Translations under genes and position numbers: made by a program
The notes under the pieces: generated by a model
What the model was told of the DNA's origin: nothing
The model's input: the letters and a program-made list of their open reading frames with translations, nothing else
Database searches by the model: none
Source: an uncultured virus (IMG/VR IMGVR_UViG_3300037067_020175)
Lineage: Duplodnaviria; Heunggongvirae; Uroviricota; Caudoviricetes
DNA: 64,000 nt
Direction: 5' to 3' (one strand)
Virus record (IMG/VR): IMGVR_UViG_3300037067_020175
Shown here: positions 14,413 through 46,616 of the stretch, piece after piece
Position numbering within the stretch: position 1 is the stretch's first letter
How the letters are laid out: each line of letters opens with the position of its first letter

Positions 14413-16260
14413 ATGACATTGATGCAATGTAGTGGAACGATGGCATATGGCGAACTGTGTATTTGCGGTTCGTTTACAACAATCGATATAAAATTCCCCG
14501 ATGCTTTGGGTAGAACGGAACCAATACACTTTTATGTGAAATCTCATCCCGGAACGTCAGGATTCAGTAACAAACCGGGTGGAGAGTGCCAACAGATAAA
14601 TGACACTGATTGGGCATATGTTGGGATTTACGCTACAACCGCATCGACACATACATTCAGAACGTGCTTATCGGCTGGAAAATATTTTGTAAAATTCGAA
14701 ACCGATCACTTTTGGCTGGATGATGGCACCGAATTTAATATCTTTGATAATATCGAAGATAGACGGCTAAATCGATGCCCGTATTATCCCGGAAGTTTAA
14801 CATTGATACCAAAAACAAATGCGGCTGGAGAATACGGGTTTGATATTTTGCACGGGCTTGTGATTTGTAAAACAATCAACCCATCTACAATATCTCCATG
14901 TAAAGTAACAATAGACGGGACTGTGATAGGATATATAACATCCGATTCTGGAATTAGTATTCCACTCACACAGGGAAACCACACCGTGAAATACGAGAGA
15001 TATGGATATGATACGTATGAGGGAATGATATCTGTTTTACACGGAGATGTTTTTTCGGTGGAGCCATATATATATAATATTCCGATGACCAAGAACCCAC
15101 CCAACGCATGTGGTCAGTATGATGATAATCCGGATATTCAGTATCAAACGGATGCCAAGATGATATTCCGGTGTACCCCAACGGGAGGGACGCTTAGTTC
15201 ATATGGTCTTACGTCTGATAAAATAGTTCCCGAAGGTGGATTGGAAATCTGCATGCCATCAGGGTTCACGTGGCTGGTTTCTTACTCGAAACCGGGATAC
15301 GCTACGAAAGATATAAATGTAACTATAACAGAAGAGATGTGTGAAACTATGACAACATACCCGGTGGATGTGGATCTTGGTATAGAACTTCCAATACCTT
15401 CTTTCACTATAGAGAATGCTTACAATATCCACCCCGGAGATAATGTAAGTTTGGTCGATACTAGTACCGGTGTGATAGATTCGTGGGTTTGGGAAATATA
15501 TCAAAGTTCAAATCCAACGAACGCATCTGTATATTATTCCCCAAATGTACAATTTATAGCGCCTCCAACTGGGATTTATACGGTAAAATTGACGGTTTAT
15601 AATATATCCGGATCCGCTACAAAACAACGGGGGCTTGAGATAAAACGACCACTCGTTGTATCGGATTTCAAGGCTGTACCGACAGAAGGGTGTGCCCCGT
15701 TTACCACACAGTTCACATCACTCCAAAGTGGGACTGCGAATCACGCTTGGTCGTTTGGTGATGGTACATTTTCCGGTGATAATGAAACCATGCACCCAGT
15801 ACATACATATACAGAATCGGGTATATATACCGTATCGCTGTCGTGTATAGGTCAGGAATCGTCGGATACCGAGACAAAGCCGGGATATATAACGGTATAC
15901 GATCCCATAATGCCACCGATTGCTTCATTCGAACCATCGACAGAACGGGGAATTGCTCCGCTTACAGTAAAATTTAACAATTTACACCCAGATCCGATAT
16001 CCTGCGGGATAACCCACTATCTGTGGAGATATAATAATGGTGATGGGTGGAAAGTATTCGATGAGAGCACAAGCCCAACACGCGTGTTCGAAACTCCCGG
16101 AACGTATGATATATCGCTAACGGTTCAAAATGATGCCGGTATGGATATGCAGGTGCAAATGGGGTGTATCACCGTTACCGAGGGATCGGAATCCAGTGGG
16201 TGGTTATATGTTCTCGGAACAGTCGGGCTGGGAATACTTACTCTTTTTGGTAGTGGTTAA
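14413..16260 (+). CDS. PEGA + three PKD domain protein with C-terminal TM anchor
   Basis: GNHTVKYERYGY (PEGA); WSFGDG, GIYTVSL, PGTYDISLTV (PKD); terminal WLYVLGTVGLGIL. Confidence 0.85.
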   Translation: MTLMQCSGTMAYGELCICGSFTTIDIKFPDALGRTEPIHFYVKSHPGTSGFSNKPGGECQQINDTDWAYVGIYATTASTHTFRTCLSAGKYFVKFETDHFWLDDGTEFNIFDNIEDRRLNRCPYYPGSLTLIPKTNAAGEYGFDILHGLVICKTINPSTISPCKVTIDGTVIGYITSDSGISIPLTQGNHTVKYERYGYDTYEGMISVLHGDVFSVEPYIYNIPMTKNPPNACGQYDDNPDIQYQTDAKMIFRCTPTGGTLSSYGLTSDKIVPEGGLEICMPSGFTWLVSYSKPGYATKDINVTITEEMCETMTTYPVDVDLGIELPIPSFTIENAYNIHPGDNVSLVDTSTGVIDSWVWEIYQSSNPTNASVYYSPNVQFIAPPTGIYTVKLTVYNISGSATKQRGLEIKRPLVVSDFKAVPTEGCAPFTTQFTSLQSGTANHAWSFGDGTFSGDNETMHPVHTYTESGIYTVSLSCIGQESSDTETKPGYITVYDPIMPPIASFEPSTERGIAPLTVKFNNLHPDPISCGITHYLWRYNNGDGWKVFDESTSPTRVFETPGTYDISLTVQNDAGMDMQVQMGCITVTEGSESSGWLYVLGTVGLGILTLFGSG

Positions 16261-16315
16261 CCACTACTTTTAAATACCATAGTGTCATTGTATCATACAT
16301 TGAGATGATATAGAG

Positions 16316-17923
16316 ATGGCTATACCCCAGACGTGTTTAGAATTCGGAATTTCGGAAGGTCAAACCCTTTGCGATTCGAATTGTAATAAATTCAAATGTC
16401 AAAATGGCATACTCGTATACGTAGGAAGATGTGGTGTAGCCGAACAACAAACGTGTAATAGCTTGGGCGCAAATTGTCCATCTGGTTCTCCGAATGGGTT
16501 TCAATGCTGCGACGGATCGGAGCTGATGCAATGTGTTGTCCCAACATCCGGATGTAATTCCCCATATTGGACTGGGGTTGGTTCATGTAGTGCTCCAACG
16601 TCTTGCCCACCGAATGACGGGTGCCCCACAACTGGAGATGGGTATGACTGTTGTGGACTAAGCTATCACCAGTGGCATTGCAATAGTGGAAGTTGGCAGG
16701 ATCTCGGAAAAACAACGCTGTGCAATCCAATAACTGACAATTTGTGCCACGATTTGACACGGGCTCAGGTTTTATTCGAGAGCAGCCCCGGAGGGGTTAC
16801 GGTATCAATAACGGGTGTAGAAACTGCAACTGTTACAACGAGTGCCGGAACATATGGGGAAGTGTATAAATGTCTGAAAGCCGGTTCTTATACGCTGACA
16901 TTTTCGAAGTCTGGGTATGAAACGATGGTGAAATCGTTTTACATAAGCAATCAGGATATATATTCTACATACCCCACGGAAGCTTACGCGTCGTTGGTTC
17001 CAACAAGTACTAAATGTCCGGCGTATCTAACGTGCCCAGAATCGGATTTCTACACAAATTGCTGCGATTATGGAGATGTTTATCAATGCAACCCCGACAA
17101 AACGTGGCATTACCAAGCATCGGGCGGGTGTGGGTGCGCGGTTGGGAACAATCTTTGCCCATCCGGAAGCACGTGCAACCAGTCTAACGGCACGTGCGTT
17201 CCGAATACACAAACATGCCCGGTGTGCCCATCTGGTCAACATTGTAGTAATGCTGCTACAAACTACCAATGCGTTCCAAATGCCGTAACTCCATGCAATC
17301 CAGCCGGAGCATTTAGATGCTTAAACGGTGTATCACAGCGATGTGATGGAAGCGCGGGGTGGGTTCCCGTACAGACTTGCACGGGAACGTGCGACACATC
17401 GACTGGTAAGTGTTCAACATTACCCGGATGTACCCCAGCCGGAGGATTTAGATGTACCGGGAATATATCAGAAATGTGTAATGGGACAACGTGGGTTCTG
17501 TCAGAATCGTGTGCGGGAACATGCAACACAGCTACAGGAAAGTGTTCGTCTGTTCTATCGTGTCCATCATCGTGTCCATCTGGTCAGCACTGTAGTGGTG
17601 CATTGACAAATTACGTGTGCGTCGATAATACAACGACAACATCATCGGTGTGTACCAATGGAACTACCCGATGCAATCCAACTAATGCAAATCAGGCACA
17701 GGTGTGCATTGGAGGGGCTTGGTCAACAACATCGTGCCAGAATGGGTGCAATGTTACTACACATGCGTGTAATCCGAGTGGGACTTCTGGTAATATATCA
17801 ACTTGCTCTGGAATGAATCGAAACGGAGTGTTCGATATTTCCTGTATAATGGAAGACCAGAATAAGACACTGCTGTACGGAGCGATAGGTATTGCGGCTG
17901 TAGTTTTATTAATGCGGAGGTAA
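16316..17923 (+). CDS. Cys-rich repeat protein with PEGA-like domain and C-terminal TM anchor
   Basis: Repeated CPSGQHCS and GTTRC modules; LLYGAIGIAAVVLLMRR tail; no signal peptide. Confidence 0.8.
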   Translation: MAIPQTCLEFGISEGQTLCDSNCNKFKCQNGILVYVGRCGVAEQQTCNSLGANCPSGSPNGFQCCDGSELMQCVVPTSGCNSPYWTGVGSCSAPTSCPPNDGCPTTGDGYDCCGLSYHQWHCNSGSWQDLGKTTLCNPITDNLCHDLTRAQVLFESSPGGVTVSITGVETATVTTSAGTYGEVYKCLKAGSYTLTFSKSGYETMVKSFYISNQDIYSTYPTEAYASLVPTSTKCPAYLTCPESDFYTNCCDYGDVYQCNPDKTWHYQASGGCGCAVGNNLCPSGSTCNQSNGTCVPNTQTCPVCPSGQHCSNAATNYQCVPNAVTPCNPAGAFRCLNGVSQRCDGSAGWVPVQTCTGTCDTSTGKCSTLPGCTPAGGFRCTGNISEMCNGTTWVLSESCAGTCNTATGKCSSVLSCPSSCPSGQHCSGALTNYVCVDNTTTTSSVCTNGTTRCNPTNANQAQVCIGGAWSTTSCQNGCNVTTHACNPSGTSGNISTCSGMNRNGVFDISCIMEDQNKTLLYGAIGIAAVVLLMRR

Positions 17924-17925
17924 TA

Positions 17926-19209
17926 ATGACGAATTACTACGAACCCGGATGGTCTTGGAGAAATGACACTACACTATTTTGGATAATGCCAACAGGACAG
18001 ACGTGTCCACTTACTCCCCAGACATATCCACTTGGGAATGTTGTGTATAATGGGATTACCGTTTGTAGAAATGCAAAACTTGGGATATCTGGTGGAATTG
18101 TATTGGGGGTAGCTAATGTCTCTAAGGTTGAGATATGGATAAAGAAGAACGGCGCGAATGTACACAAGATTGTCAGTGCAGACGAAGCATATATCCTCGG
18201 ATATCAATCATACTTCAGTACATCACCATCTTCTACATCTGCTTACCAGTTCACATCTGACGGAACGTATTCCATATCTGTCCTGTATTGGATTGGTGAT
18301 AGCCCATCTCCGGGTCTTGGACTCGAAAACGATTTCGATGTGAGTTTCAACGAAGGAGATCCTGTTGTAACAGTTCAGAATTCGTTGAGTTATTTCCGGG
18401 GATATATAGACTATACCAACAGGATACAGAATGATTGTATTATAGGAGAAAATGGATTTTCCGGTGCATCGAATTGCAGGTTTGTGAAGAATACTCAGGT
18501 TGTAGCAAATATTGACGTATACATTCAAGGTGGAAATTCTCTTGGTCAGGAATACAGATCATACGTCGAGGCTTATAATGCTGGGTGGGGTAGGATATCT
18601 GAAATAAAGTCTGCCGGTGTTCTTACCCCCGGAACAAGCTGGGTTATATCAGTACCGTTCACAATAACCGATTCTGGAATTACCGGTAGGCAATACAGAA
18701 TAGTCCTATCATATCTCGGATACGACGGAGTATCCCGATATATTATGACTGATAGTTCCGTTCTTGTATCTGTTGACGAATCGTCTCCTATACAATGCCC
18801 TACAGAGTGTCAGAACGGTCAACATTGCAGCGGTGCGTCCACAAATTACCAATGTGTCGCAAATACTTCATGTCCCGTCCCTTGCCCCGCCAATACCCAT
18901 TGTAGCGGGTCTCTGACGAACTATGCGTGTGTTGATAATTCTACAACATGCACGAATGGAACCACTCGGTGCAAACCCGGAAACGCCAATATCTCTCAGT
19001 ACTGCTCAGCAGGAACTTGGGTTGACAGGTCGTGTGACAACGGATGCAATCCGGTTACAACGGTGTGCGAAACGAATACAACATCGCAATGTGATGGAAT
19101 GAATCGGGATGGTGAATTTGATATTTCGTGCATACTCGAAGACCAGAACAAGTCCCTTCTTTATGTGGGGATCGCTGCGATTGCGGCACTGGTGTTACTT
19201 AAACGGTAA
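17926..19209 (+). CDS. Ig-like + Cys-rich protein with C-terminal TM anchor (paralogue of upstream gene)
   Basis: Shares GQHCS.A.TNY.CV and GMNR.G.FDISCI.EDQNK.LLY with 16316-17923. Confidence 0.8.
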   Translation: MTNYYEPGWSWRNDTTLFWIMPTGQTCPLTPQTYPLGNVVYNGITVCRNAKLGISGGIVLGVANVSKVEIWIKKNGANVHKIVSADEAYILGYQSYFSTSPSSTSAYQFTSDGTYSISVLYWIGDSPSPGLGLENDFDVSFNEGDPVVTVQNSLSYFRGYIDYTNRIQNDCIIGENGFSGASNCRFVKNTQVVANIDVYIQGGNSLGQEYRSYVEAYNAGWGRISEIKSAGVLTPGTSWVISVPFTITDSGITGRQYRIVLSYLGYDGVSRYIMTDSSVLVSVDESSPIQCPTECQNGQHCSGASTNYQCVANTSCPVPCPANTHCSGSLTNYACVDNSTTCTNGTTRCKPGNANISQYCSAGTWVDRSCDNGCNPVTTVCETNTTSQCDGMNRDGEFDISCILEDQNKSLLYVGIAAIAALVLLKR

Positions 19210-20150: not shown

Positions 20151-20960
20151 TTACATTACGTGGGTTGCTGCCATTGCAGCCGGGTTGAAGTCTGTCTCGT
20201 AGAAGCACATACCGAGTAACGGCATGTATGCAGTTCCAGTGTACAGTGGGTGGATCTGGATGTTCACACCGGTCTGGTGAGAGATCGGGATGATACCGGG
20301 TGTAGTGTACTGGAAGATTGAGCGTCCTTCCTCGATTGACTGGTTCAGGAGAGGCTGCATCTGGATAGGCGTATACTTGTCCATAAGTTCAGACTTGAAG
20401 TGGATCTGATCGATCTTCGGGGTTGTTCCGATTTCGATGATACCATCTTGGAACAGGACTACGTATGAGTGCTTGCTTGTGGTTGCACATCCTTTGTAGT
20501 ACGTGGATGACGAGTTACCGCAGATGTACTTTGATGTCCCTGCCACGAGTGGCATGTCCCATGTACGGTTCTGGGTTGTACCGATAGATCCGTCGATACC
20601 GACGTACTGGGTGATACCAACAGCAGTTGCGTCACCGTATCCGAACAGTGCTGGAGACAGGAAATCGACTGCGAGACCGCCGGACTGTCCGGGGTAGGAG
20701 TAGTTCTTGTTCTCAGGGAATGTTCCCTTTGCAATCTGTGCGAATTTGACCATTGCTTCCCGCTGTGGGCGGATGCTTGCTGCGAGCTTTGGTGATACAT
20801 TTTCAATTTTCTTTACATTCTGGTCGAAGCAGTAATATACTGCATCGCGCTCGTCTGATGCCATGTCAGCAATATCAACGAGGTCTCTTCCACCAGTGAA
20901 CACGCGGATGCCCTGTTGAGCTTCCGACGCGAACAAGTCTGGAATGCGTGCTTGTGCCAT
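20151..20960 (-). CDS. Candidate major capsid protein (helical N-terminus, beta-rich C-terminus)
   Basis: Strong GGAG RBS, C-ending codon bias (TAC/TTC/ATC/AAC) suggesting high expression, heads the paralogue operon; fold inferred. Confidence 0.45.
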   Translation of the reverse strand: MAQARIPDLFASEAQQGIRVFTGGRDLVDIADMASDERDAVYYCFDQNVKKIENVSPKLAASIRPQREAMVKFAQIAKGTFPENKNYSYPGQSGGLAVDFLSPALFGYGDATAVGITQYVGIDGSIGTTQNRTWDMPLVAGTSKYICGNSSSTYYKGCATTSKHSYVVLFQDGIIEIGTTPKIDQIHFKSELMDKYTPIQMQPLLNQSIEEGRSIFQYTTPGIIPISHQTGVNIQIHPLYTGTAYMPLLGMCFYETDFNPAAMAATHVM

Positions 20961-21025
20961 TTTCTATTCTCCAATGGACATCAATTGTCCGAAAGGTATA
21001 TCAGCTTTCGGGTATTATAAGTATT

Positions 21026-21226
21026 GTGACAGAAAAGAAAGGAAAGTCTGGAATTAGTGACACAAAAATAGAGATTCGTTGTCATGATAGTAAGACAAAG
21101 ACTGATTTCAAGAGGATCGCGGCTGATTTCAGAACTTACGAGGATGTCATAAAGTGGTTGAATGTAAACTATCCTATATTCTCTAAGATGGCTCCGGTTA
21201 AAGTAGTTCCGGGTGGAACACTTTAA
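21026..21226 (+). CDS. Small ribbon-helix-helix-like regulator (putative), divergent from the candidate MCP
   Basis: TKIEIRC...KTDFKRIAADFRTYEDVIKWL. Confidence 0.4.
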   Translation: MTEKKGKSGISDTKIEIRCHDSKTKTDFKRIAADFRTYEDVIKWLNVNYPIFSKMAPVKVVPGGTL

Positions 21227-21818: not shown

Positions 21819-22622
21819 ATGACTATAAACATTTCTACCAACGTTTCGTCAACTGCCGATAAGAAGATGAAGGTTTCTTCTACCCCATATGGGTATGATA
21901 TAGCCAAAGGGAATATGTCCGGGCACGAGCAGTTTTTCAAGACCGGATTTAATGGATCTGTAGACAATGTAGAAGTTGATTTATGGAGTGTTACAAGTGC
22001 GTATGTATTTACCAGCGTGGGAATACCAATGCAAGTTGTATCGGCAAGTACGAACGATACATCGCCGTCAGGAGCCGGTGTGCATAAAGTAAGGATATGG
22101 TATCTTAACACAGCTTTTGATGAAAAGGTTGAAACGGTTTCTCTCAATGGTACTACAGAGGTTAAAACATCTGCAAACGACATATACCGTGTGAATGCGT
22201 TTAGAGCTCTTGAAGCTGGATCCGGGGGGAAGGCTGCCGGGAACATAAGTCTCACAGACGTGAGTGGTATAATATATTACTCGCAGATAGCTACTGGTCA
22301 GACACGAGCACGAAGTTCTATCTATACCGTTCCTGCTGGAAAAACACTGTATATAACAGAGCTTACATATTCTGTGGGTCATGCATCCGGGAACAGATAT
22401 GCAAGGTTCACACTTCGCGCTACTTACGATGAGGTTGTTGGTGCTATATCTTCGTTGTTCTATCCGTACCATGAGATAGGTCTACAGGATGGCGCAATCG
22501 ATATAAATCTGAATACTCCACTCCGTTTTCCCGCAGGAACCGATGTGAAAGTTTCGGTAATAAGCGACTCTGGAACGGCAAATGCGATATGCACTGCTGC
22601 ATTCAGAGGATGGTTGGAATAA
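21819..22622 (+). CDS. Putative virion structural protein (beta-rich)
   Basis: 267-aa ORF; YTVPAGKTLYI, PLRFPAGTDV motifs. Confidence 0.55.
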   Translation: MTINISTNVSSTADKKMKVSSTPYGYDIAKGNMSGHEQFFKTGFNGSVDNVEVDLWSVTSAYVFTSVGIPMQVVSASTNDTSPSGAGVHKVRIWYLNTAFDEKVETVSLNGTTEVKTSANDIYRVNAFRALEAGSGGKAAGNISLTDVSGIIYYSQIATGQTRARSSIYTVPAGKTLYITELTYSVGHASGNRYARFTLRATYDEVVGAISSLFYPYHEIGLQDGAIDINLNTPLRFPAGTDVKVSVISDSGTANAICTAAFRGWLE

Positions 22623-22693: not shown

Positions 22694-23092
22694 TTAGAGG
22701 ATATTGGTTTCACGTCTTGAAACCATCTGGTAAGCACCCTGTGGTACTGCCCTGACTGCGGCTCGTGGATATGCGCGTGCCTGTGCTGGGAGTCCCATAT
22801 ACGTGTTACCGAAGGTGTTGATGAGTCCTGATGTCAGGAGTGATCCACCGAATGCCATGAGTGCCATCTGGTTCAGAGGGCTGCTGACAATCTTGCGGGT
22901 CTTCATTGCGTAGACACTGAGCAAAATTGCACCTGCTCCACCAACAAGGCTAACGAGGTTCTGTGTAGTTCCGAGGTTAGCTGGGAGTGCAACGATTGTC
23001 TGGTTTGGTACGTAGTTCTTTACAAGGTAAGTTGTCAGGACACCTGCTGCTCCTGCGCCAACCATAGTCATAATCTCGCGTTCGTTAGACAT
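22694..23092 (-). CDS. Gly/Ala-rich membrane protein (three hydrophobic helices), putative virion membrane protein
   Basis: Hydrophobic segments; AFGGS motif shared with 23224-23598. Confidence 0.65.
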   Translation of the reverse strand: MSNEREIMTMVGAGAAGVLTTYLVKNYVPNQTIVALPANLGTTQNLVSLVGGAGAILLSVYAMKTRKIVSSPLNQMALMAFGGSLLTSGLINTFGNTYMGLPAQARAYPRAAVRAVPQGAYQMVSRRETNIL

Positions 23093-23164
23093 GATAACTG
23101 TGTATACGTTGACATTCTATTTAAATGTTATCTGAATCTATATATAGAAGAACTGTTTTTGTAT

Positions 23165-23200
23165 GATCGAAACCGATCAAATGCGATCAAAACTGATCAA
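23165..23200. repeat. Four GATC sites at exact 10-bp spacing
   Basis: GATC at 23165, 23175, 23185, 23195. Confidence 0.85.
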
Positions 23201-23223
23201 CTGTTAAAAAAATGTTATCGGAT

Positions 23224-23598
23224 TTATACGAGTCCGGCACCTGAAAGAATGCCTCCCGCAAGTGCTGAGCCTCCGTAGCTGACAGCAATATTCCGGATCT
23301 TCGGGTCTTTCAGGAAGAACAGACCCACACCGATAGCAGCAGCACCTGTAGCCATACCGATCAGTGCAGATGGTTTTCCAAATCCGCCTATTGCGCTCAG
23401 GTCTGGATACCATGATGGTACATTACCATCCATATACTTCTTGAGAAGAATGGTCTGTGCAGCTCCTACAGCAGCTCCACCTGCAAACATCAATGCGGTC
23501 TTTCTCTCTGGGGTCAATGCAAATTTGCTCTCACTGAAAGGTGTGAACGTTCCGGATGTGGGTAAATAGCTATCCATGTAATGGATATCGTTTGTCAT
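23224..23598 (-). CDS. Gly/Ala-rich membrane protein, paralogue of 22694-23092
   Basis: AGGAAVG...LKKY...GAAAI...SYGGSAL. Confidence 0.65.
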   Translation of the reverse strand: MTNDIHYMDSYLPTSGTFTPFSESKFALTPERKTALMFAGGAAVGAAQTILLKKYMDGNVPSWYPDLSAIGGFGKPSALIGMATGAAAIGVGLFFLKDPKIRNIAVSYGGSALAGGILSGAGLV

Positions 23599-23619
23599 TG
23601 TATAAAAATGTTTTTGATG

Positions 23620-24755: not shown

Positions 24756-24824
24756 TTTATTTCACCATTGTATCTACTTATGCAATCGGTATATTTAAAT
24801 ATATCCCAGACCTTACTGATACAC

Positions 24825-25067: not shown

Positions 25068-25080
25068 ACGGGGTATATCT

Positions 25081-35429: not shown

Positions 35430-35486
35430 TCTTTTTTTTTATTTCCGATATACATATATTAGTGGACTGCTAATAACTATTTTAGT

Positions 35487-36526: not shown

Positions 36527-36527
36527 T

Positions 36528-37214: not shown

Positions 37215-38383
37215 CAACCGTGACACTCGACTCAGAATATTACTCTGCAAAAAACCAGTCGTATGGGTTTGTGGGTGTTGGTTATCGCGATTTCTTGGGA
37301 AATGCTAATGCTGCACTTATAATTTCGGAATTGAATCCGAGACCAACCAGTGTTATAGATATTGGCGGAGCGCGCGGATACACTGCCAAGACATTATCTA
37401 CAGTTCTTGGGATACCGGTGACGGTAATGGAAAAAAGTCAACACTGTTACCACACGCGTGCAACGAACGATTTTGTTCTGCATGATATGTACGATTTCCC
37501 GTACCCATTCGAAGACAAACAATTCGATGTTGCATATAGTAACTCTGTTCTCGAACATGTGGACTATGAACACGTAGATGGTGTTATAAAGGAAATGGCG
37601 CGCATAAGCAATCGGGGATACCACGTGATTGGATTCAGACATGTTGGTGGTGATACATCCGAAACACCGACGGGGGTGTTCTTCGAGGATGGGACTCATA
37701 TAATATACGAGACTCTCGATTGGTGGAAGAAAAAGTTTGAACGACTTGTTCCGGGATATCATTTTGATATATTCAATGCATATGGTTCGGATCTAAAGTT
37801 ACGGATACCATCGCTGAGGAATGATCATAAAAGTCTTAATCTCGGATGTGGTACTAATTTGTTTGGTTCCGGGTGGATTAATGTGGACAAGTTGGATATA
37901 TCTAAAATATGCACTGATCCTCTTGTAAGCGAAACATTCGATATTACCAACAGATTGCCATATGGGGATAATTCGTGTGATTATATATTTCTTGGAAATA
38001 TCATCGAAACTCTTGAAATTGATAAAGGGGTGGCACTTATGCAGGAGTGTTACAGGGTTCTCAAAAAAGGAGGCATGGTCAGGGTATCGGTTGTTAACTC
38101 GGAGTTGCTCATGAGAAAATATCTCAACGGTGATATAGATTTTGTAAAACACATTCATGTCGGATCTGAATTATCACCGTGCGATATAATAAAATTGTCG
38201 TATGCGATGTTTGATGGGATGGGTACTGTATACGATACGTGCTTATTACGTGAGGTGCTGAAGAGATCCGGGTTTGAGAAAATGACTACGGTGAATGCAT
38301 GGAGTTCTTCTTCCCCATTCTTGTCAGCAACCACGTGTGTGTCATATCCTACGATAAGTCTGGTAATGGAGGCTCAGAAATGA
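37211..38383 (+). CDS. Tandem double SAM-methyltransferase-domain protein
   Basis: VIDIGGARG...PFEDKQFD...VLEHV; second domain LNLGCG...ECYRVLKKGG. Confidence 0.8.
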   Translation: MTTVTLDSEYYSAKNQSYGFVGVGYRDFLGNANAALIISELNPRPTSVIDIGGARGYTAKTLSTVLGIPVTVMEKSQHCYHTRATNDFVLHDMYDFPYPFEDKQFDVAYSNSVLEHVDYEHVDGVIKEMARISNRGYHVIGFRHVGGDTSETPTGVFFEDGTHIIYETLDWWKKKFERLVPGYHFDIFNAYGSDLKLRIPSLRNDHKSLNLGCGTNLFGSGWINVDKLDISKICTDPLVSETFDITNRLPYGDNSCDYIFLGNIIETLEIDKGVALMQECYRVLKKGGMVRVSVVNSELLMRKYLNGDIDFVKHIHVGSELSPCDIIKLSYAMFDGMGTVYDTCLLREVLKRSGFEKMTTVNAWSSSSPFLSATTCVSYPTISLVMEAQK

Positions 38384-38718
38384 TGGATAATATTTTCATC
38401 GGTGGCGTCACTATGGCAGATGGTAAAGGATATTGTCGAAAGTGTATGAAAGTATTCGAATATCATTATAACGGGTCTGCCGGTCTGCGCGTTGGGGAGG
38501 GCAATTGCCCCGATTGTGGTAGTGGTGAAAATCACGGGGAAGTTGTCCGTGAAGATGATGTCGAAGACGAGATAGGATTCAAGCGAAGTCTTGTGAATGG
38601 TGGTATAATTACCGCAGATGGGCAGATTCGGAACATACGTCACGAAATATCCGAACTAAACTATATAAGGAGGCAGTTTGATAAATATGATGAAGAAAAA
38701 AGGAAGGAACTGAAATGA
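38380..38718 (+). CDS. Zn-ribbon hypothetical protein
   Basis: CRKC...CPDCGS. Confidence 0.6.
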   Translation: MMDNIFIGGVTMADGKGYCRKCMKVFEYHYNGSAGLRVGEGNCPDCGSGENHGEVVREDDVEDEIGFKRSLVNGGIITADGQIRNIRHEISELNYIRRQFDKYDEEKRKELK

Positions 38719-39761
38719 AAATTGCATTGATTTCTCCACCACTTCTGCTCACCCCACCGAGAGGTTATGGTGGGCTGGAACGTGTAGTATACGATCTCGG
38801 ATGCGCGCTTGTGGAACAAGGCGAAGAGGTTACTCTCTTTGCACCACCCGGATCACATATAGATGGTGGGAAACTCGTTGAGACAGTAAGCGCGCCAGAG
38901 CGCACTGATGTCAATTGGGTGGAACTTGAGAAGACTGCGTATGAAGGATATCGGGAAAAACTTGTGGGTTTTGATATAATCCATGATCATAGTTGGTTTG
39001 GATTCCCCTACCTCGCGAAGATAGATCCAGCGTTTAAGGACTTGAAGATATGCCACACACACCACGGACACTGTGACTGGAATCCCGGTCTTGTTCCGGA
39101 ACAGATAAAACCGGTAAGTCTTATAGGTATATCCGAATTTATGATGAACGAGTATAAGTCCCGTGGATGGAATTCCAAATATGTCTATAATGGTATAGAT
39201 ATAAGCAAACATCCATATTCGGATGTTAAGGATAACAGACTCGTTTTCGTTGGGAGAATAAGTAAGATTAAGATGCCGCACGCAGCTATAAAGGTTGCAA
39301 TAGAGTGTGATATCCCCATAGATATTATAGGAGGGAGTTTTGTAGATGACAAATCGTATCTCGAAGCGATCAAGACGGAATGTGAAAATAGCAAGGGTAT
39401 TGCTACTCTCCATCTTGACTTGGATCACGCAAAGAAAGTCGAGCTCGTCCAGCACGCAAAAGCGTGCCTGATACCAAGTAAGTTTGGAGAGCCGTTTGGA
39501 CTCACTGCTGTAGAATCGATTTCTTGCGGCACTCCTGCCATTTGTTTTGATGATGGAGCATTAAAGGAGATTGTCAATACACCAAGCGTTGGATCGATTT
39601 GTAGGGACTATGATGCCTTTCTAAAGGCAGTACAGAATATAGACTCTGCAAAGTATGATCCAAAAGCATGCAGAATTCGTGCTAATTACTTTACCCGCGA
39701 GAAGATGGCTGAGCGATACACTAAATTATATAAAGAAGTTGTAGATGGTAAGGGTTGGTAA
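38715..39761 (+). CDS. GT4 family glycosyltransferase
   Basis: MKIALI...PPRGYGGLE, FVGRI..IK, EPFGLTAVESISCGTP. Confidence 0.9.
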   Translation: MKIALISPPLLLTPPRGYGGLERVVYDLGCALVEQGEEVTLFAPPGSHIDGGKLVETVSAPERTDVNWVELEKTAYEGYREKLVGFDIIHDHSWFGFPYLAKIDPAFKDLKICHTHHGHCDWNPGLVPEQIKPVSLIGISEFMMNEYKSRGWNSKYVYNGIDISKHPYSDVKDNRLVFVGRISKIKMPHAAIKVAIECDIPIDIIGGSFVDDKSYLEAIKTECENSKGIATLHLDLDHAKKVELVQHAKACLIPSKFGEPFGLTAVESISCGTPAICFDDGALKEIVNTPSVGSICRDYDAFLKAVQNIDSAKYDPKACRIRANYFTREKMAERYTKLYKEVVDGKGW

Positions 39762-39765: not shown

Positions 39766-40557
39766 TTACAAATCATATCTCGCTTGTTTTGAAGTGATTG
39801 TTCTGGAAGTGTATTCCCAAATATCTTCTACGGTTGCGCCACCACCAGTTCCAACTCCACCACCATATGGCAGAATTGCATAAACAGACGATGTGTCTGG
39901 TGTTGTAACCCATGCATCAACAATTGCAATTCTTGAAGATCCTTCATATCCATTGATTACACGTGCTTGTCCCGTTCCTGTTCCAGACACGATTACCACT
40001 TTGAGATTTGTATATGTTTCGCTTATCGGAGATGATGTCAGGGCTAGAGTTATAGATGTAGAAGTTCCACCAAGAGCCGTTCCTTCATTAATGACATATG
40101 TGCGCAGATTTCCAAGTATGCTTCCGGCTGTTCCGGCATTATACGAACCCGGAACCTGAGTGAGCCACGGATCTGTTCCAGATCCTCCCCCAGTTGCGAC
40201 AGTTTCTGATTTTACCGGCTGTGAGTATTGTACCAGAACGTTGAACGTCCCATCCGTTTGCACAAATGGATCTGAACCATCGGAAGTAACAAGAACCCCA
40301 TTAGTAACAGTGAGTTTATGACTCGATTCCTGCGGTTTCACTTTCCACCCATTTTCCAAGAAAAAATATGATGTAACGTAGATGCCTTGTCCAGCATCTA
40401 CAGGATCTCCACCGACAACACTGAATGCGTTCAGGTATCCGCTTCCAGTAGATATGATCCAGTCCTTCCAACGAGAGTAGACATCACGGACATCGAGTGT
40501 TAATGTACCCGCTGTCATCGTGATTATTTTCGTTGTTCCATCGAACGTACATCCCAT
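39766..40557 (-). CDS. Putative virion fibre/spike-associated protein
   Basis: DVYSRWKDW motif shared with the neighbour (VYSKLKELW). Confidence 0.6.
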   Translation of the reverse strand: MGCTFDGTTKIITMTAGTLTLDVRDVYSRWKDWIISTGSGYLNAFSVVGGDPVDAGQGIYVTSYFFLENGWKVKPQESSHKLTVTNGVLVTSDGSDPFVQTDGTFNVLVQYSQPVKSETVATGGGSGTDPWLTQVPGSYNAGTAGSILGNLRTYVINEGTALGGTSTSITLALTSSPISETYTNLKVVIVSGTGTGQARVINGYEGSSRIAIVDAWVTTPDTSSVYAILPYGGGVGTGGGATVEDIWEYTSRTITSKQARYDL

Positions 40558-40571
40558 TTCTCCACCTTGCG

Positions 40572-42170
40572 TTATGCATTCTGGTAGTTTCTCTCAAGCG
40601 GAGCTACAAGCGATATACTATTGGTGATAGACCTTGCGATGTTCCCGGTAGCTTTTACGAATTGTCCGGTTTCGAGACCAATACCAACTACTGTTATCGG
40701 TGCGTCGTCTGTTGGAGAGGCATTCGGTAAAGTATTACCTCGCTGGATATTCGTGTCGTAAGCGAAGGTGTGAGTTACCGTAGCATCCCCATCCACTACA
40801 GACCCCATAATCTGAGTGAGTGTCCCACCGGTATCTGCGGTTTCCGTTTCCTCAGCATGTGTGAGTGCATATGAGAAGTGAGTCCCGTCCGATGTCGCGC
40901 TTACAGTGAAAATACCATTATACCCGGATCCACCAATACCAGCGACACGCACTATATCATCAATAACAAGACCATGCGCTGTGGCAGTAGTTATTGTTGC
41001 TACGTTTGCAGCGCTGCAAGCACGGTGCGTGGATGTTACTGCGTTTGATGTATCCACGAGGATGGCATTCGATGTCCCATAATCATATCCGAGATTGCTT
41101 CCTGAGTCATCATTGGTGAAATATACCCAGTATCTGGCATCTGCATCGTTGACAAGATTGTCTCCAAAGTTGATTGTGAGCACAGCCGTGTATGGAAATG
41201 TCAGTTCGGCTCCGAGGTCATCGACAAACACCAGTCTGTTCACATCGTTGCTCAGGTAGTTGTCTATAAAAACACCGCCCTCTGTGACTGCAACCGTATA
41301 GAGCGTGTCACCAACGAATCTCAATAATGCACCGGTCTTCTTACCCGTTTGTGTTCCGGCACCATCGTCGATATCGGTAGCCTGTCTAAGCTCGTGCTGG
41401 ACAAATTCGAATATTTGTTCCGCTGTTCCGCTGTTGCCATCGATTATAACATGGAAGTCGTAGTCGGTGCCTCCGATATCTCTTGTCTGGGCAGTTCCGT
41501 ACCACGTTATTGTCATTCCGGTGTATGGCGCATTTCCTTCAACATATGTATCATCGTGAGTAATCTTAGGGTCACTTGCATTTGCAAGTGGGAAACGGTA
41601 CGCCTGATATGTCATCACGGTAGCACCGATATCGCTCAATTGTGAGAATGCATACGTTTTCTGGTAGATACGACAGTATATTTTGAAGTAGCTGCGATAA
41701 TCGAAGCTTCCGTGGGTTACATCCCCGTAAATTTTAACGGCTTGGTTTACAGCTCCGGTTAACTGGAAGTTAGCGGTGCTTCCACCACTCGACTGTAGGA
41801 AGTATGCCTGATCTGTACCTCCGATGCTGCCAAGAGATATGATACCAGCCCATTCTTCCTGAGAAACACCACCCGTGTCTTTTAAAGCCCATCCTCCGTT
41901 TCGAAGGAGATATCGTGTGGTATCATCTTCCCAGTCCCACCCGTTTACCATTTCGAATTGTTCGTCGGTAATTGGTGACATCGGGAACGGGAATTTGATA
42001 TATGTCGAACTCGATTTCCACAATTCTTTCAGCTTACTGTACACGCACTTCAGCGTAACCCCGTCACTTGTCAAAGAACCAGCTACAACCAATTGTACCG
42101 TTTTTCCCGAAGTGTCGATCACTATATTCGTTGGGTCTACAAGATCGTCAGGATCTGTTAACATTGTCAT
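40572..42170 (-). CDS. Putative virion fibre/spike protein
   Basis: Thr/Gly-rich; ATITTATAHGL..DDIV....GYNGIFTV module. Confidence 0.6.
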   Translation of the reverse strand: MTMLTDPDDLVDPTNIVIDTSGKTVQLVVAGSLTSDGVTLKCVYSKLKELWKSSSTYIKFPFPMSPITDEQFEMVNGWDWEDDTTRYLLRNGGWALKDTGGVSQEEWAGIISLGSIGGTDQAYFLQSSGGSTANFQLTGAVNQAVKIYGDVTHGSFDYRSYFKIYCRIYQKTYAFSQLSDIGATVMTYQAYRFPLANASDPKITHDDTYVEGNAPYTGMTITWYGTAQTRDIGGTDYDFHVIIDGNSGTAEQIFEFVQHELRQATDIDDGAGTQTGKKTGALLRFVGDTLYTVAVTEGGVFIDNYLSNDVNRLVFVDDLGAELTFPYTAVLTINFGDNLVNDADARYWVYFTNDDSGSNLGYDYGTSNAILVDTSNAVTSTHRACSAANVATITTATAHGLVIDDIVRVAGIGGSGYNGIFTVSATSDGTHFSYALTHAEETETADTGGTLTQIMGSVVDGDATVTHTFAYDTNIQRGNTLPNASPTDDAPITVVGIGLETGQFVKATGNIARSITNSISLVAPLERNYQNA

Positions 42171-42340
42171 ACTGTAATACCTCGTATAATGTAATTCGGA
42201 TTGGAAAGTGTTATCTCTTTTCCGAATGTTCTACGGGATACAACACCCATCGAATACCCGTCATCAAAGACTATGACACTTTGAGATTCATCTATTATAG
42301 TTCCACGGTGTTTTCCATCTGTAGTTTCTATTATCCGCAT
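42167..42340 (-). CDS. Small hypothetical protein (57 aa; not in ORF track)
   Basis: MRIIETTDGKHRG...; GGTGA RBS; ATGA overlap with next gene. Confidence 0.55.
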   Translation of the reverse strand: MRIIETTDGKHRGTIIDESQSVIVFDDGYSMGVVSRRTFGKEITLSNPNYIIRGITV

Positions 42341-42354
42341 CATGTATATATCAC

Positions 42355-45300
42355 CTACGCTGGATTCAGGTATTGCCTGTCAATGAACTGCTGTACCGGT
42401 ATTGTAAGTCCATCAGATCCTAATATCTGGTTTGTATATGAAACCGCGAGATATCCGAGAGCAAATACCCTGATGTAAACATTTATATCCCCACCAGTAA
42501 CCCACGTGTAGTTATATGTAAACGTTCCGGTAGTTACATCTTCTTGCCCGGATATCTCTACATCATCTGAGGTGCGGTACACTCGCACTTCGGTGTTGTT
42601 CTGCAACCCGGTGAGAGACAGAGTTGCATCTACAGTATCAAGTGGGTATAGGTTTGAGCTTTGTGCAGCAGCAGTGGATGTTGTATCGATTCTAAGATAA
42701 GTAATAGCATTAGCATCAGTGCCGATTGCTGTTATGCGTATTTTCATTTTAAATCCGATTGCTGGATTTATGCCACTTATAGCACTCAGATTACTGCCTG
42801 TTGCTTCCGTCCATGTACTGCTATATCCACTTCCTTTATCAATGTCGTATTCTATGGTAAAATTGGATAATGTCGCACCGGACATTGTTGGTGTTGAGTT
42901 AACAAACCCGGTATGCCCAAGTCTGAATACGCTGTCCTCCCATATTGCCTGATACCCTATTGTACCAAGTAAAATTCCACCAGCAGAATTCCATTTTGCA
43001 GTCCCAGAAACCATTGTGAAAAAAGATGTAGTTTCTGCGGTTGGCTCGTTGAATGCAAGAATATATCTTCCGGTGACATCGCCTATGAACATATCACGGA
43101 AATGTGTCCCGTATACGGATGCCTGACCGGTTGTGGTATTCTGACCACTTCTTATATTTTTTGAAATGGAGTTAAGTCCAGCGTCTATGAATGGAGATAC
43201 AGCCATTGTAGTCCAGACATATCCACCATCATACATATGTTCGTAGATAACATTCTTGTCAGAGTTGATGGTTGTAGCAGTACCGGTTCTTGTTAAATCG
43301 AGATAGATTCTTTGGACTTTAACTGTATCATTGTTTCCACCGGATACATATGGAATCCCAAGACCATATAGACTCGATCTCCATGTTCCACCACTCAGTG
43401 GTGATGCAAATGTTCCAACATTTCTAATCTTTATATTACTCGAAGCTGTGACGCTGAATATTCCGGTATACGGGTGGTTGTTTGGAGCAGTTCCTTTGTA
43501 TCCAAATGCCACACCATCCACAATAATGTTGTTGCTTTTCGTAGCAATTGTTATAGCGTATAACCCGCCAGTACTGTTAGTGAACCCGATGTAATTATCA
43601 CAATGATCGGTATCAGTTAATGTACAATTGGTTGAACCGGTCAATGTAATTCCTGAATTCAAACTGCAAAACGATGATGTAGTAATAGAGTCGCAATACG
43701 TCAATTGGATCGATTTTCCAGTTGACCGCGCATATTGGACTACTCCAGCCTTACAATTATATATATTCGTTCCTTTACAATACGACAGAAACATTGCATG
43801 ACCAGATGTAGCTGGTGCGTTTCCTCGCTCGAACTTGCAGTTTTTAATAGTCCCACCCGCGAAATTCGAAGTTTGTGTCGTACAAGCCAAAGCCAATCCG
43901 TAGCAACCATTACCACCATCGTGAATGTCGAGAGGGGATGCACATTCTGATATTATGAGTGTATCCATTATAGCAAAATGGTGGTGCTTCACGAGATAAG
44001 CCTGACCTATATTGTGATACCACTGAGAATAGATATATTCATAGTCGAGATATCCAGCACTCGTTGTGGTAATTTCCGGTCTCGATCTCACGGTAGAATT
44101 TGGAGCACTGTTTGTTGCTCTCGTAGCGGTTGCGCATTCGCGGAGAAATACATTGGGTATTCTTGTCCTTAGTCCGGAATCTGGGATAAATCCTATCGTT
44201 TGCTTTATCGTAACATTCCCGGAATCTGCCGATGCGCCATTATTGCAGACCACATCGAATGTGTCTGTAGCGACAGCAACAATTGGGTATACTCCATCAA
44301 CCCCAGATCCCGATGTGAAGTCAAGATAGACGCGATTTCCGACAGCAAGCCCGTGAGCTGCATAGGTAATACGGTATCTCGAATATACAGATACGTTTCC
44401 AGATATGCTGGCTGATTGTGCATATTTAATATTATATCCGTTTGCACCGGTTACGGCATAAATTTCGTAATTTCCGTCTACTCCAGACCCGGATGTGAAA
44501 TCGCAATAAACCACATCCCCAGTACCCAGAGTGTGTGCAGTAAATGCAATTGAAATTCCAGCTCTTACCGTAACGTTACCCCCGGTTCCACTTCCAGCTA
44601 GCGAAACTGTATATGTATATGGATCTATTACGGTTACTGTATATAACCCATCGGATGAAGTTGCATCACCAGATGTGAAATCGAGATATACCTGATGTCC
44701 GGTTTTCAACAAATGCCCGGTTGCATAGGTTACTGTTACCAGATCCGAAGCCCACGTATAGGTGCTTGAATGCGAAACTGTTGCATATGTACCATTCTGT
44801 GATGCAACATTTGCATATGTTGCCGACAGGTTGGATGATTCAGCGATCTGCATCTGCCCTGAACCAATCATTTTTACAAATTTCTGGCGTTCGTCCTGCA
44901 TAGTATATGCTGCACCTATATGCCTATATGCCCATCCATTTGCAGAACCGTTTAGTGCCGGAAAGAACCCAAACGAAGTCACCGTGCAGTTTCCACCAGT
45001 TCCGGAACCGGTTAAGGCAAAAGTAAATGTCCCGGTTGTAGGAACAGATGTGATGATATATTCCCCGTCTGTGGTTGCGTCTCCTGTAGTGAAATCTATA
45101 TCCACATTTTGATTAAGTGTGTACCCGTGGTCGGTCAGAGTAACAGTAACAACATTCGCAGCCCATGTATATGTTGATGCTCGCGGGGTTGACCTCTCTA
45201 TCCAGACTCCGGGGCAATATGTGTTTGCTCCTCCACCATTTGTAGGAACTTGCAACACTTGTTCCGCAGACCCGTTGGTATTATCCAGATAGAACCATCC

Positions 45301-45813
45301 TCCACGGATAGTGTGTTTTCCGAGACGAGGGACTGTGATATTTGCGGCAGCATCACAGACGATTTCCATCCATCCGGTCACGTCTGCTGAAAGCGCGGTT
45401 GCTCCAATTCCCGTTAACGCACCTGCTGCAAATGTGCCGGTTACTTCGCGAAATTTTATAAATCCCGTTGCTGGCATTGCAGATCCTGCGGTTGTTGGAG
45501 CACTTGTAAGGCTTGCATATACTCCGAGGATATAGCTTGCAGACACTCCAGCCTGAGTTATAGATGTTCCAATTGCTGGGACATTTCCGGTTCCGGAATC
45601 ATATGCAAGCCATCGTATATTCTGCGCATCGAATATTATTTCCCCTTCACTTATTGTCATTGACCCGAACGAACCAGTCATAGACGCTGGAGAGTAGGCA
45701 TGATATCTGTTGTCTGTTCTTACGGTTAATTTCGCACCTGAGTTTATAGTCCAAGCTTCACCAGCCGTTCTCGATGCAGAATCCAGATACGTATCCGAAG
45801 TTATAGTCGCCAT
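42355..45813 (-). CDS. Large spike/adhesin protein with four HG..G..V..DFTSG...DG.Y repeats and a beta-helix region
   Basis: Repeats visible in translation; 1152 aa. Confidence 0.7.
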   Translation of the reverse strand: MATITSDTYLDSASRTAGEAWTINSGAKLTVRTDNRYHAYSPASMTGSFGSMTISEGEIIFDAQNIRWLAYDSGTGNVPAIGTSITQAGVSASYILGVYASLTSAPTTAGSAMPATGFIKFREVTGTFAAGALTGIGATALSADVTGWMEIVCDAAANITVPRLGKHTIRGGWFYLDNTNGSAEQVLQVPTNGGGANTYCPGVWIERSTPRASTYTWAANVVTVTLTDHGYTLNQNVDIDFTTGDATTDGEYIITSVPTTGTFTFALTGSGTGGNCTVTSFGFFPALNGSANGWAYRHIGAAYTMQDERQKFVKMIGSGQMQIAESSNLSATYANVASQNGTYATVSHSSTYTWASDLVTVTYATGHLLKTGHQVYLDFTSGDATSSDGLYTVTVIDPYTYTVSLAGSGTGGNVTVRAGISIAFTAHTLGTGDVVYCDFTSGSGVDGNYEIYAVTGANGYNIKYAQSASISGNVSVYSRYRITYAAHGLAVGNRVYLDFTSGSGVDGVYPIVAVATDTFDVVCNNGASADSGNVTIKQTIGFIPDSGLRTRIPNVFLRECATATRATNSAPNSTVRSRPEITTTSAGYLDYEYIYSQWYHNIGQAYLVKHHHFAIMDTLIISECASPLDIHDGGNGCYGLALACTTQTSNFAGGTIKNCKFERGNAPATSGHAMFLSYCKGTNIYNCKAGVVQYARSTGKSIQLTYCDSITTSSFCSLNSGITLTGSTNCTLTDTDHCDNYIGFTNSTGGLYAITIATKSNNIIVDGVAFGYKGTAPNNHPYTGIFSVTASSNIKIRNVGTFASPLSGGTWRSSLYGLGIPYVSGGNNDTVKVQRIYLDLTRTGTATTINSDKNVIYEHMYDGGYVWTTMAVSPFIDAGLNSISKNIRSGQNTTTGQASVYGTHFRDMFIGDVTGRYILAFNEPTAETTSFFTMVSGTAKWNSAGGILLGTIGYQAIWEDSVFRLGHTGFVNSTPTMSGATLSNFTIEYDIDKGSGYSSTWTEATGSNLSAISGINPAIGFKMKIRITAIGTDANAITYLRIDTTSTAAAQSSNLYPLDTVDATLSLTGLQNNTEVRVYRTSDDVEISGQEDVTTGTFTYNYTWVTGGDINVYIRVFALGYLAVSYTNQILGSDGLTIPVQQFIDRQYLNPA

Positions 45814-45823
45814 TACAATTCAC

Positions 45824-46306
45824 CTACAATTTCACATCTTCTCTCTGTTTTGTCCCATATTCTTTCATTGTTGAAATTATACGGACTGTCGCGGTATTAC
45901 CGGTATCGCATTTAATGAATACTTTCTTTATTTTTGGAGCGCGCATGTCTATTTGAATAGAATCACCGGAGTCAAGTGTTGGGTCTCGTGGGATTTGGGT
46001 GAGATAATACAGACCGTCATTTTCTCCATATTCGTTTACATATAGATGTATCGGGTCTGCACCATCGTTGAATAATGTCATTGCAATCCACGGGAGAGAT
46101 GGCATCACGTCCGGATTAAGTTCCAATAAAGAATCTGTGACATCAAACTCATACTTCTTTACAAGATCTGGTATACTATCTTTCATTACAGCTAATTGTT
46201 CGTAAAGAATACCAGCTATATCGTTCAGGAGCTGCGTCTGAATAATAGTAGGGACATATTCTCTCTCCGATAAGAGAATGTCCATTCCCTGTTTCCTATC
46301 TGCCAT
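45824..46306 (-). CDS. Putative jelly-roll-like virion protein
   Basis: PWIAMTLFNDG...IKKVFIKC; layout like 26800 and 27805. Confidence 0.5.
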   Translation of the reverse strand: MADRKQGMDILLSEREYVPTIIQTQLLNDIAGILYEQLAVMKDSIPDLVKKYEFDVTDSLLELNPDVMPSLPWIAMTLFNDGADPIHLYVNEYGENDGLYYLTQIPRDPTLDSGDSIQIDMRAPKIKKVFIKCDTGNTATVRIISTMKEYGTKQREDVKL

Positions 46307-46307
46307 T

Positions 46308-46616
46308 CTAATGCACCTTTCTTGAGATTGTGATTACCCGTTCGCGCCCGAGCCAATCAGTCCACCTTATATTTTCTTCGTTCTCCACTACGGGTTTGTT
46401 AGATTTAAGGATGTCTTTCGCAGTTAATCCGGGGATATCCTTGTAATAATCACGATGTGATCCAAACCCTGCAAAATCCGGAGATGTCGATGAGGTAGGA
46501 ACAATCGACGATACTGATTGCACATTACGGTTAACGAATATCTGGTATACTACAAATCCGACAACGAGAAGTATAGCTCCACCAGCTACGTAAGTAAAAA
46601 TATCGTCGGTCTCCAT
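46308..46616 (-). CDS. Membrane protein with N-terminal TM
   Basis: VAGGAILLVVGFVVYQIF. Confidence 0.6.
   Translation of the reverse strand: METDDIFTYVAGGAILLVVGFVVYQIFVNRNVQSVSSIVPTSSTSPDFAGFGSHRDYYKDIPGLTAKDILKSNKPVVENEENIRWTDWLGRERVITISRKVH

Follow-up and report, generated by a model that had tools for sequence, protein, structure and literature searches.

The 64,000-nucleotide (nt) stretch of uncultured viral DNA analyzed here (IMG/VR record IMGVR_UViG_3300037067_020175; hereafter the window) raises the question of what kind of virion is served by positions 14413..46616, 32 kb of structural-type genes with no recognizable head-tail hallmark. From this region, the original prediction proposed a large archaeal virus with a tailless, membrane-containing virion. 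The large size is borne out: the contig carrying a conserved 269-amino-acid (aa) protein of the region is 137,777 bp long, and the window makes up ca. 46% of it, less than half. We take the genome to be that of an undescribed large virus (125–138 kb) whose host is an anaerobic archaeon. The region from 14.4 to 46.6 kb is best explained as a set of surface, host-recognition, and accessory virion genes, and the virus is probably a head-tail virus (Caudoviricetes) whose head genes lie outside the window, a reading to which we give a somewhat better than even chance. Family scans of the window used Pfam on 71 open reading frames (ORFs) at E ≤ 0.01 and PHROGs on 62 ORFs at E ≤ 0.001; features are collected in Table 1.

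Genes in common with tailed phages

A three-gene cassette links the region to tailed phages. Its 532-aa protein is 52% identical to gp53 of phage Syn5 over 86% of the query, the last 89 aa of its 1152-aa protein are 44% identical to Syn5 gp54, and the first 109–110 aa of its 263-aa protein are 35% identical to Syn5 gp55 (E 5.8e-15). Searches with the gp53-, gp54-, and gp55-like proteins hit 7, 5, and 7 phage records, respectively, and all three genes were matched in five phages (Syn5, S-TIP28, Maribacter phage Panino, MW202577, and Rctr197k). Matches were to tailed phages only, the records inspected being filed under Caudoviricetes, and the gene order is the same as in MW202577. Accessory virion proteins of this sort support a placement in Caudoviricetes without defining it. 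The 532-aa protein also carries the sole “head and packaging” label in the window (phrog_5838, “virion structural protein”, E 1.3e-5). Syn5 gp53 and gp54 are labeled as structural proteins in GenBank. They are reported by Raytcheva et al. (2014) to form the Syn5 horn. Syn5 gp55 has been assigned to the capsid knobs (PMC4102127). The window proteins differ from their Syn5 counterparts in several respects. The gp54-like protein is almost twice as long as Syn5 gp54, and its N-terminal three quarters resemble MW202577 only, while the gp55-like protein has an extra C-terminal part of 150 aa. The hosts differ as well, since Syn5 is a T7-like podovirus of cyanobacteria, i.e., of bacteria, whereas the host of the window virus is archaeal. 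The cassette is thus common to an archaeal virus and to phages of cyanobacteria, Maribacter, and a methane-oxidizing enrichment; identity of up to 52% is unusually high for an exchange across host domains.

The second link is through the replication module, which lies outside 14413..46616. Its exonuclease-to-helicase block (7926..14029) is conserved in all larger relatives, and a ParB-methylase and an NrdG activase are also among the replication-type genes of the window. In relatives L014 and L006, the gene next to the helicase encodes a family B DNA polymerase; no polymerase family was found among the scanned ORFs of the window. A PDB profile search with the alignment of the 416-aa protein gave nothing significant. 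Scans of IMG/VR with the 269-aa profile, and with the helicase or the 416-aa protein as single sequences, found no relative, and wider alignments of the 269-aa family offered no stretch of sufficient conservation for such a scan; a profile of the 416-aa protein found one 13-kb contig without a terminase, and the helicase alignment found 25 loci at 28–38% identity. Two tailed IMG/VR records, G003 and G005, share genes with the window. G003, a 30.6-kb fragment, has the primase-polymerase (28% identity over 582 aa, E 1e-59; the homologue in the related contig C3 is 52% identical), the exonuclease, the protease, the helicase (36%), and the 416-aa protein. Its polymerase is 44% identical to that of L014, the order ParB – x – primase-polymerase – exonuclease is the same, and at least seven family genes are present in all. 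It also encodes a large terminase (PF03237, E 4e-10; phrog_10250, E 8.6e-45). G005, which is complete at 63.9 kb with direct terminal repeats, has the helicase and the protease in common with the window, and encodes small and large terminase subunits, a portal, a head-morphogenesis protein, and a major head protein (phrog_1650, E 4e-16). Both records differ from the window in having a terminase, at identities of only 24–44%. The 269-aa protein and its small paralogues occur in neither of them, nor do tRNA genes.

Because the cassette is common to tailed phages, and because the kin recognized by replication genes are tailed, we lean to a head-tail virus. We infer that the genes for its terminase, portal, HK97-fold capsid protein, and tail tube would lie in the ca. 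74 kb of the contig beyond the window. To our knowledge, all described prokaryotic viruses of ca. 138 kb with tRNA islands are tailed. A described system of this kind is HGTV-1 (Halomagnusvirus, Caudoviricetes), a tailed archaeal virus that resembles the window virus in having a large genome, a large set of tRNAs, RNA ligases, a CCA-adding enzyme (PMC8651126), and an archaeal host. No link by sequence was found between the two: neither the primase-polymerase nor the 269-aa protein has a match among phage or archaeal-virus records, and head and tail hallmark genes like those of HGTV-1 were not found in the scanned parts of the window family.

The 269-aa protein and the choice between virion types

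The 269-aa protein is the signature of the family. It has 62 homologues at 30–83% identity, and an exhaustive profile search collected 86 clusters at 50% identity, all of them 59–319 aa long and none fused or doubled. Three small paralogues follow its gene wherever enough sequence is available (44 ORFs). Structures were predicted for two proteins only. An AlphaFold2 model of the 269-aa protein (33 sequences; pLDDT 84.7, pTM 0.87) consists of two long helices (residues 35–55 and 57–80) followed by a C-terminal, jelly-roll-like beta sandwich. A Foldseek search of the PDB with this model returned nothing at E ≤ 0.001, the best match being the satellite tobacco mosaic virus coat protein at 2.9e-3. 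In a VIA-align comparison with 48,161 chains, 16 of the 50 rows listed were viral jelly-roll capsid or capsid-scaffold proteins; the remaining rows listed were cupins, dioxygenases, carbohydrate-binding modules, and similar proteins. Matches in BFVD at E ≤ 0.001 numbered three, two uncharacterized phage proteins and a tail fiber protein. The only PDB profile match of the 269-aa alignment was the satellite tobacco necrosis virus coat protein at a non-significant E of 0.99, the small-paralogue alignment gave nothing significant in the same kind of search, and 50 distant family members had no PHROG match below E 0.006. The modeled fold is thus jelly-roll-like and not HK97, every score being at a level that the tool calls common by chance. 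For the 269-aa protein, the structural check proposed with the original prediction yielded the general fold and no significant structural match.

The operon admits more than one role. On the head-tail reading, we infer that the 269-aa protein and its three partners may be accessory virion proteins that decorate the capsid or form a receptor-binding complex. Syn5 gp58 would be a possible parallel, in architecture only; it is described as having capsid-binding N-terminal helices and a protruding, strand-rich C-terminus; the architecture is like that of the 269-aa protein while the sequence is not, BLAST finding no similarity (E 0.58). In one distant relative, two tandem 269-aa paralogues (271 and 270 aa) precede the usual three small ones (L015:10001-11640). 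The 265-aa and 267-aa proteins of the region were considered as further paralogues of the 269-aa protein, and were ruled out by comparison.

The scans confirmed that the region has no recognizable terminase, portal, HK97 capsid, tape-measure, or sheath genes, and extended the observation to the rest of the window, where scaffold and tube families were also not found by Pfam or PHROGs. Neither collection detected baseplate proteins in the window, fiber-like proteins being the only ones of this sort seen. Contig C3, which adds ca. 35 kb beyond the window content, had no hallmark either (Pfam on 77 ORFs, PHROGs on 46 ORFs), and 38 further ORFs, mostly from L015, L008, and L025, likewise yielded no match to a terminase, portal, HK97 capsid, or tail family. 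A packaging ATPase of any kind, terminase or FtsK/HerA A32-like, was found neither in the window nor in C3 or the flanks of L008, L010, L015, and L006; Walker A or helicase motif I occurs in the window only in the primase-polymerase and the UvsW-like helicase. The suggested search for an FtsK/A32 ATPase versus a terminase thus found neither in the window. The packaging gene must therefore lie outside the window whatever the virion type, and the observed morphogenetic gene set is incomplete on either reading. The absence of hallmarks from less than half of a contig is not diagnostic. For a tailed virus of ca. 138 kb, the chance that the sequence examined would contain none of its hallmarks is perhaps one in five, and their absence accordingly favors a tailless virion only moderately.

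Several observations nevertheless weigh against a head-tail virion. Altogether, ca. 100 kb of family gene content (window, C3-specific sequence, and relatives' ORFs) is without a caudoviral hallmark, no HK97-fold capsid protein was among the Foldseek or VIA-align rows shown for the 269-aa model, and viral jelly-roll capsid or capsid-scaffold proteins accounted for 16 of the 50 VIA-align rows. The 269-aa protein is conserved as strongly as the helicase (57–83% versus 63–72% identity). Its family is large, uniform in length, duplicated in L015, and encoded in the same direction as four membrane proteins; such conservation and context are what the major capsid protein of a membrane-containing virus would be expected to show. 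The links to tailed phages are themselves open to qualification. The assignment of Syn5 gp55 to the knobs is based on density and sequence analysis rather than on a built model. The G003 terminase is closest to PBSX-type enzymes, with named matches from Firmicutes (among the 120 listed of 5714 at E ≤ 1e-10), and G003 may accordingly be a bacteriophage whose kinship with the window is modular and cross-domain, the shared replication genes being only 26–44% identical. Modules can be exchanged between virus types.

These points define an alternative that we regard as unlikely, although worth keeping in view: a tailless icosahedral virus with an internal membrane, in which the 269-aa jelly-roll protein is the major capsid protein, present as two paralogues in some relatives. 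With a similarly low probability, the small jelly-roll or beta-sandwich proteins would build the vertices and carry the fibers, and the small membrane proteins would sit in the inner lipid layer. An equally doubtful variant is a new capsid lineage in which the three small beta-sandwich paralogues join a helix-plus-jelly-roll protein in a tailless, membrane-containing capsid, fiber and knob proteins having been borrowed from tailed phages. The missing hallmarks, the conservation of the 269-aa protein, and the conserved jelly-roll operon beside four membrane proteins speak for such a virion. A jelly-roll-like fold and clustered small membrane proteins are also found in Sulfolobus polyhedral virus 1 and the Sphaerolipoviridae (HCIV-1, P23-77), and the two 269-aa paralogues of L015 recall the two capsid proteins of Sphaerolipoviridae. 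Against it stand the cassette common to tailed phages, the terminase-bearing kin, and the lack of a packaging ATPase of either kind in the window. With less than half of the contig in the window, the tailless, membrane-containing architecture originally proposed is thus unsupported; a virus of that type would, at 125–138 kb, far exceed all others of prokaryotes in size.

Another archaea-specific virion (enveloped, pleomorphic, or spindle-shaped), with the Gly/Ala-rich membrane proteins as major structural components and the jelly-roll proteins associated with the envelope, is very unlikely. In its favor, the paralogous Gly/Ala-rich pair with its hydrophobic segments is conserved throughout the family, Aeropyrum coil-shaped virus encodes a homologue of the protease, and scans of the window found no icosahedral packaging enzyme. 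Pfam and PHROGs, however, detected no similarity to described capsid proteins of such viruses, the cassette of tailed phages argues for an icosahedral head, and the largest genomes of enveloped, pleomorphic, or spindle-shaped archaeal viruses known to us are below 80 kb. It is extremely unlikely that the region holds no virion module at all, being instead a set for host-surface remodeling (exclusion, adhesion, or glycan modification) or part of a non-viral element such as a plasmid or a Borg-like element. PKD, CARDB, and Cys-rich C-terminally anchored proteins, an anchored protease, and glycosyltransferases are typical of cell-surface biology, and C3 carries a tyrosine integrase. Yet the region encodes homologues of proteins that phage records label as structural, and the window combines numerous homing endonucleases with a 22-tRNA island and a phage-type replication module. 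Neither a signal peptide nor a membrane segment is present in the 269-aa protein or its partners. In contrast to Borgs, giant linear elements of Methanoperedens with pervasive perfect tandem repeats, the window has only seven tandem-repeat rows in 64 kb, three of them in one fiber gene, and its gene content is viral; this part of the original prediction is therefore improbable. Borg genomes measure several hundred kb and end in long inverted terminal repeats; the contig here is 137,777 bp long. Near-identical DNA in two further studies is likewise as expected for a circulating virus. The head-tail reading, with head genes outside the window, thus remains the one that we favor.

Archaeal host and an undescribed lineage

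The host assignment relies on the tRNA and translation island. Its aRF1 matches TIGR03676 at E 3.5e-63, and its Pth2 matches archaeal equivalogs. The tRNA-Tyr (52303-52378, 76 nt) has a C1-G72 first pair, A73, and a short variable arm, and the tRNA-Tyr of C3 is of the same type. A C1-G72 pair and a short variable arm characterize the archaeal and eukaryal form of tRNA-Tyr, whereas the bacterial form has G1-C72 and a long variable arm. On these three signals, an anaerobic archaeal host is well supported, in line with the archaeal virus originally predicted; the methanogen host named at that time would be a more specific reading than these signals support. The upstream region that the 269-aa gene shares with the small divergent ORF has, in six of eight aligned relatives, a TTATATA box at ca. 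55 nt from the ATG and, before the ATG, a GGAG/GGTGA site; this fits an archaeal promoter without proving one. One translation gene counts against an archaeal host: the tRNA nucleotidyltransferase (52541-53266), short at 241 aa, is class II (PolyA_pol head), a type typical of bacteria and eukaryotes, while the other translation genes of the window are archaeal.

That the element is a virus is supported by its homing endonucleases, its 17 (ARAGORN) to 22 (Rfam) tRNA genes, and its homologues of proteins labeled structural in phage records. DNA near-identical to 17000-26900 was found in groundwater runs, the likely source, and in landfill runs of two further studies, and the genome is therefore a real, circulating entity; G+C of the window is 0.40–0.49 throughout. 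As far as the searches reach, the lineage appears undescribed, as had been proposed: neither the 269-aa protein nor the primase-polymerase had a match in 50,697 phage records, a megablast of 14413-36000 against the same records gave none, and a literature search found no account of the family, which is not proof that none exists.

Carriers of the 269-aa gene comprise 28 metagenome loci (L numbers) and one genome-collection contig, C3 (64,764 bp). Their conserved block consists of the helicase, the Cys-rich anchored proteins, the 269-aa gene with its three paralogues of ca. 100 aa, the small divergent ORF, and the four membrane proteins, followed by the CarboxypepD_reg protein, the trypsin-like protease, the 168-aa and 136-aa proteins, the fiber, and the glycosyl- and methyltransferases. 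C3 has no terminal repeats. It was placed in a bin titled Candidatus Saccharibacteria, which has neither aRF1 nor a gp53-like gene. Because the bin lacks aRF1 while C3 has an archaeal tRNA-Tyr, C3 is probably mis-binned. Two weak terminase matches in the bin belong to different contigs, which have nothing in common with the window or C3.

Surface, membrane, and accessory genes of the window

The genes surrounding the 269-aa operon are listed in Table 1. The 615-aa protein matches PKD_4 in Pfam at E 1.8e-24, and the two Cys-rich paralogues are 58% identical over 127 aa; the translations of all three end in a hydrophobic C-terminus followed by basic residues. The small divergent ORF may encode a regulator, “ribbon-helix-helix” being a guess from its sequence. 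Hydrophobic segments were found in eight ORFs of the region (ORFs at 22694, 23224, 23620, 24156, 25051, where the segment is C-terminal, 26529, 27516, and 46308), in agreement with the many small transmembrane proteins noted originally. The paired Gly/Ala-rich membrane proteins (22694-23092 and 23224-23598) also proved to be paralogues (27% identity, E 5e-5). For the predicted small beta-sandwich paralogues, spikes, and fibers, paralogue sets and fiber-like genes were found; “spikes” and “beta-sandwich” were guesses, two proteins having been folded. One of these sets is the 168-aa and 142-aa pair. In the Atlas model of the 168-aa protein, the C-terminal ca. 90 residues align to small cupin-type clusters (TM 0.36–0.49 by query); among named clusters, PRD1_P5_spike_N comes closest (0.87), which is no more than a lead. 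The 875-aa fiber-like protein has SGLYLASG-type repeats, with tandem repeats of 132 and 156 nt in its gene, and is 31–38% identical among relatives, compared with 47–58% for the 136-aa protein encoded before it. Glycosyl- and methyltransferases confirm the glycosylation genes; in L006, homologues of the first glycosyltransferase and of one methyltransferase come after the fiber.

Table 1. Positions of the main features in the 64,000-nt window.
Positions	Strand	Feature	Remarks
4455..7784	-	Primase-polymerase, 1109 aa	Walker A at residue 357; Prim-Pol E 4.6e-4, below Pfam cut-off
7926-8576	-	Exonuclease	phrog_298
10649-11899	+	Conserved 416-aa protein	Function unassigned; kept in all larger relatives
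within 7926..14029		230-aa ORF	Part of the exonuclease-to-helicase block
12503-14029	+	UvsW-like helicase	phrog_16 E 1.8e-71; ResIII/Helicase_C/UvsW_N (Pfam)
14413..19209	+	Three large surface-type proteins	615-aa PKD protein; Cys-rich paralogues of 535 and 427 aa
19247..20108	-	Three tandem paralogues, 91/94/96 aa	E 1e-5 to 1e-14; each read as a 7-strand beta sandwich
20151..20960	-	Conserved 269-aa protein	Candidate capsid or capsid-accessory protein
20948..21226	+	Small conserved ORF, divergent from 269-aa gene	In 9 loci at 42–66%
21819..22622	+	267-aa protein	phrog_8198 E 5.8e-22; genome-specific
22694..24755	-	Four consecutive membrane proteins, 132/124/178/199 aa	Co-directional with 269-aa operon; 22–52% in relatives
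24768..26172	+	99-aa CarboxypepD_reg-like protein, then 373-aa trypsin-like serine protease with C-terminal membrane anchor	Pfam; phrog_20754 E 1.3e-38
26800..28233	+	168-aa (26800-27306) and 142-aa (27805-28233) paralogues around a 94-aa membrane protein	30% identity, E 1e-10
28233..32438	+	380-aa protein, 136-aa protein (29428-29838), 875-aa fiber-like protein (29811-32438)	
32439..35801	+	183-aa protein, then 375-, 265-, 161-, and 104-aa proteins	
35801..39761	+	Glycosyltransferase-like protein, two methyltransferases, 139-aa ORF, GT4 glycosyltransferase	Pfam, PHROGs
39766..45813	-	Cassette of three genes	1152 aa (42355-45813), 532 aa (40572-42170), 263 aa (39766-40557)
45824..46634	-	Two genes upstream of the three-gene cassette: 160-aa protein, 108-aa membrane protein	Hydrophobic segment
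46656..58764	-	tRNA/translation island	tRNAs, HD hydrolase, Pth2, aRF1, class II CCA-type nucleotidyltransferase, RNA ligase, HNH endonucleases

Some accessory genes have homologues elsewhere. The 267-aa protein, which is absent from relatives except the identical L001, matches hypothetical proteins of cyanomyoviruses and small Caudoviricetes in 31 phage records, and the 183-aa protein has homologues in EBPR siphovirus 2 (gp74; 39%, E 4e-21) and S-CRM01; for both, homologues were found only in tailed phages. The protease homologues are those of Aeropyrum coil-shaped virus, G003, and G005. No phage-record match was found for the 265-aa protein, and the 160-aa and 108-aa proteins had no family match in Pfam or PHROGs. 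A 1544-aa protein without a family match, with a recurring Cys motif (~xSCMxxLL), is encoded at L042:116-4750 (C3 16415-21049) and has a homologue in L015. Homing endonucleases (LAGLIDADG, HNH, and NUMOD3) are scattered beside conserved genes and vary among relatives (L008:7466-8482, L015:9048-9695, L006:13413-14099, and 55016-55414 and 58805-59344 in the window).

Six tRNA-like genes, one of them 89 nt long, were reported by Rfam and not by ARAGORN (47421-47509, 52151-52221, 55596-55667, 55746-55816, 58200-58271, and 58694-58764), and one (47515-47586) was reported by ARAGORN and missed by Rfam. The aRF1 gene (50866-52041, minus strand) is longer than its listed ORF, the frame being open upstream of 51492. 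This upstream part encodes domain 1 with the NIKS and YxCxxxF motifs, and has 151 codons without ATG, GTG, or TTG; an in-frame TGA (51946-51948) lies 31 codons past an ATG at 52041. Elsewhere in the window, TGA is an ordinary stop (14 of 65 ORFs). From the reading frame, aRF1 synthesis would involve either UGA read-through or initiation at an ATT two codons past the TGA; read-through would make feedback on the level of the release factor possible.

Descriptions of archaeal viruses from ordinary anoxic habitats are few, and the present family has 86 clusters of its signature protein and no described relative. Even if its members are tailed, they have a strongly conserved operon, encoding a jelly-roll protein and three paralogues, a structural-labeled cassette in which identity between an archaeal virus and a cyanophage reaches 52%, 22 tRNAs, and a virus-encoded aRF1 with an odd start. 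If the tailless alternative were true, the virus would be larger than any other non-tailed virus of prokaryotes and would represent a new capsid lineage, and the rule that every large virus of prokaryotes is of the head-tail type would no longer hold.

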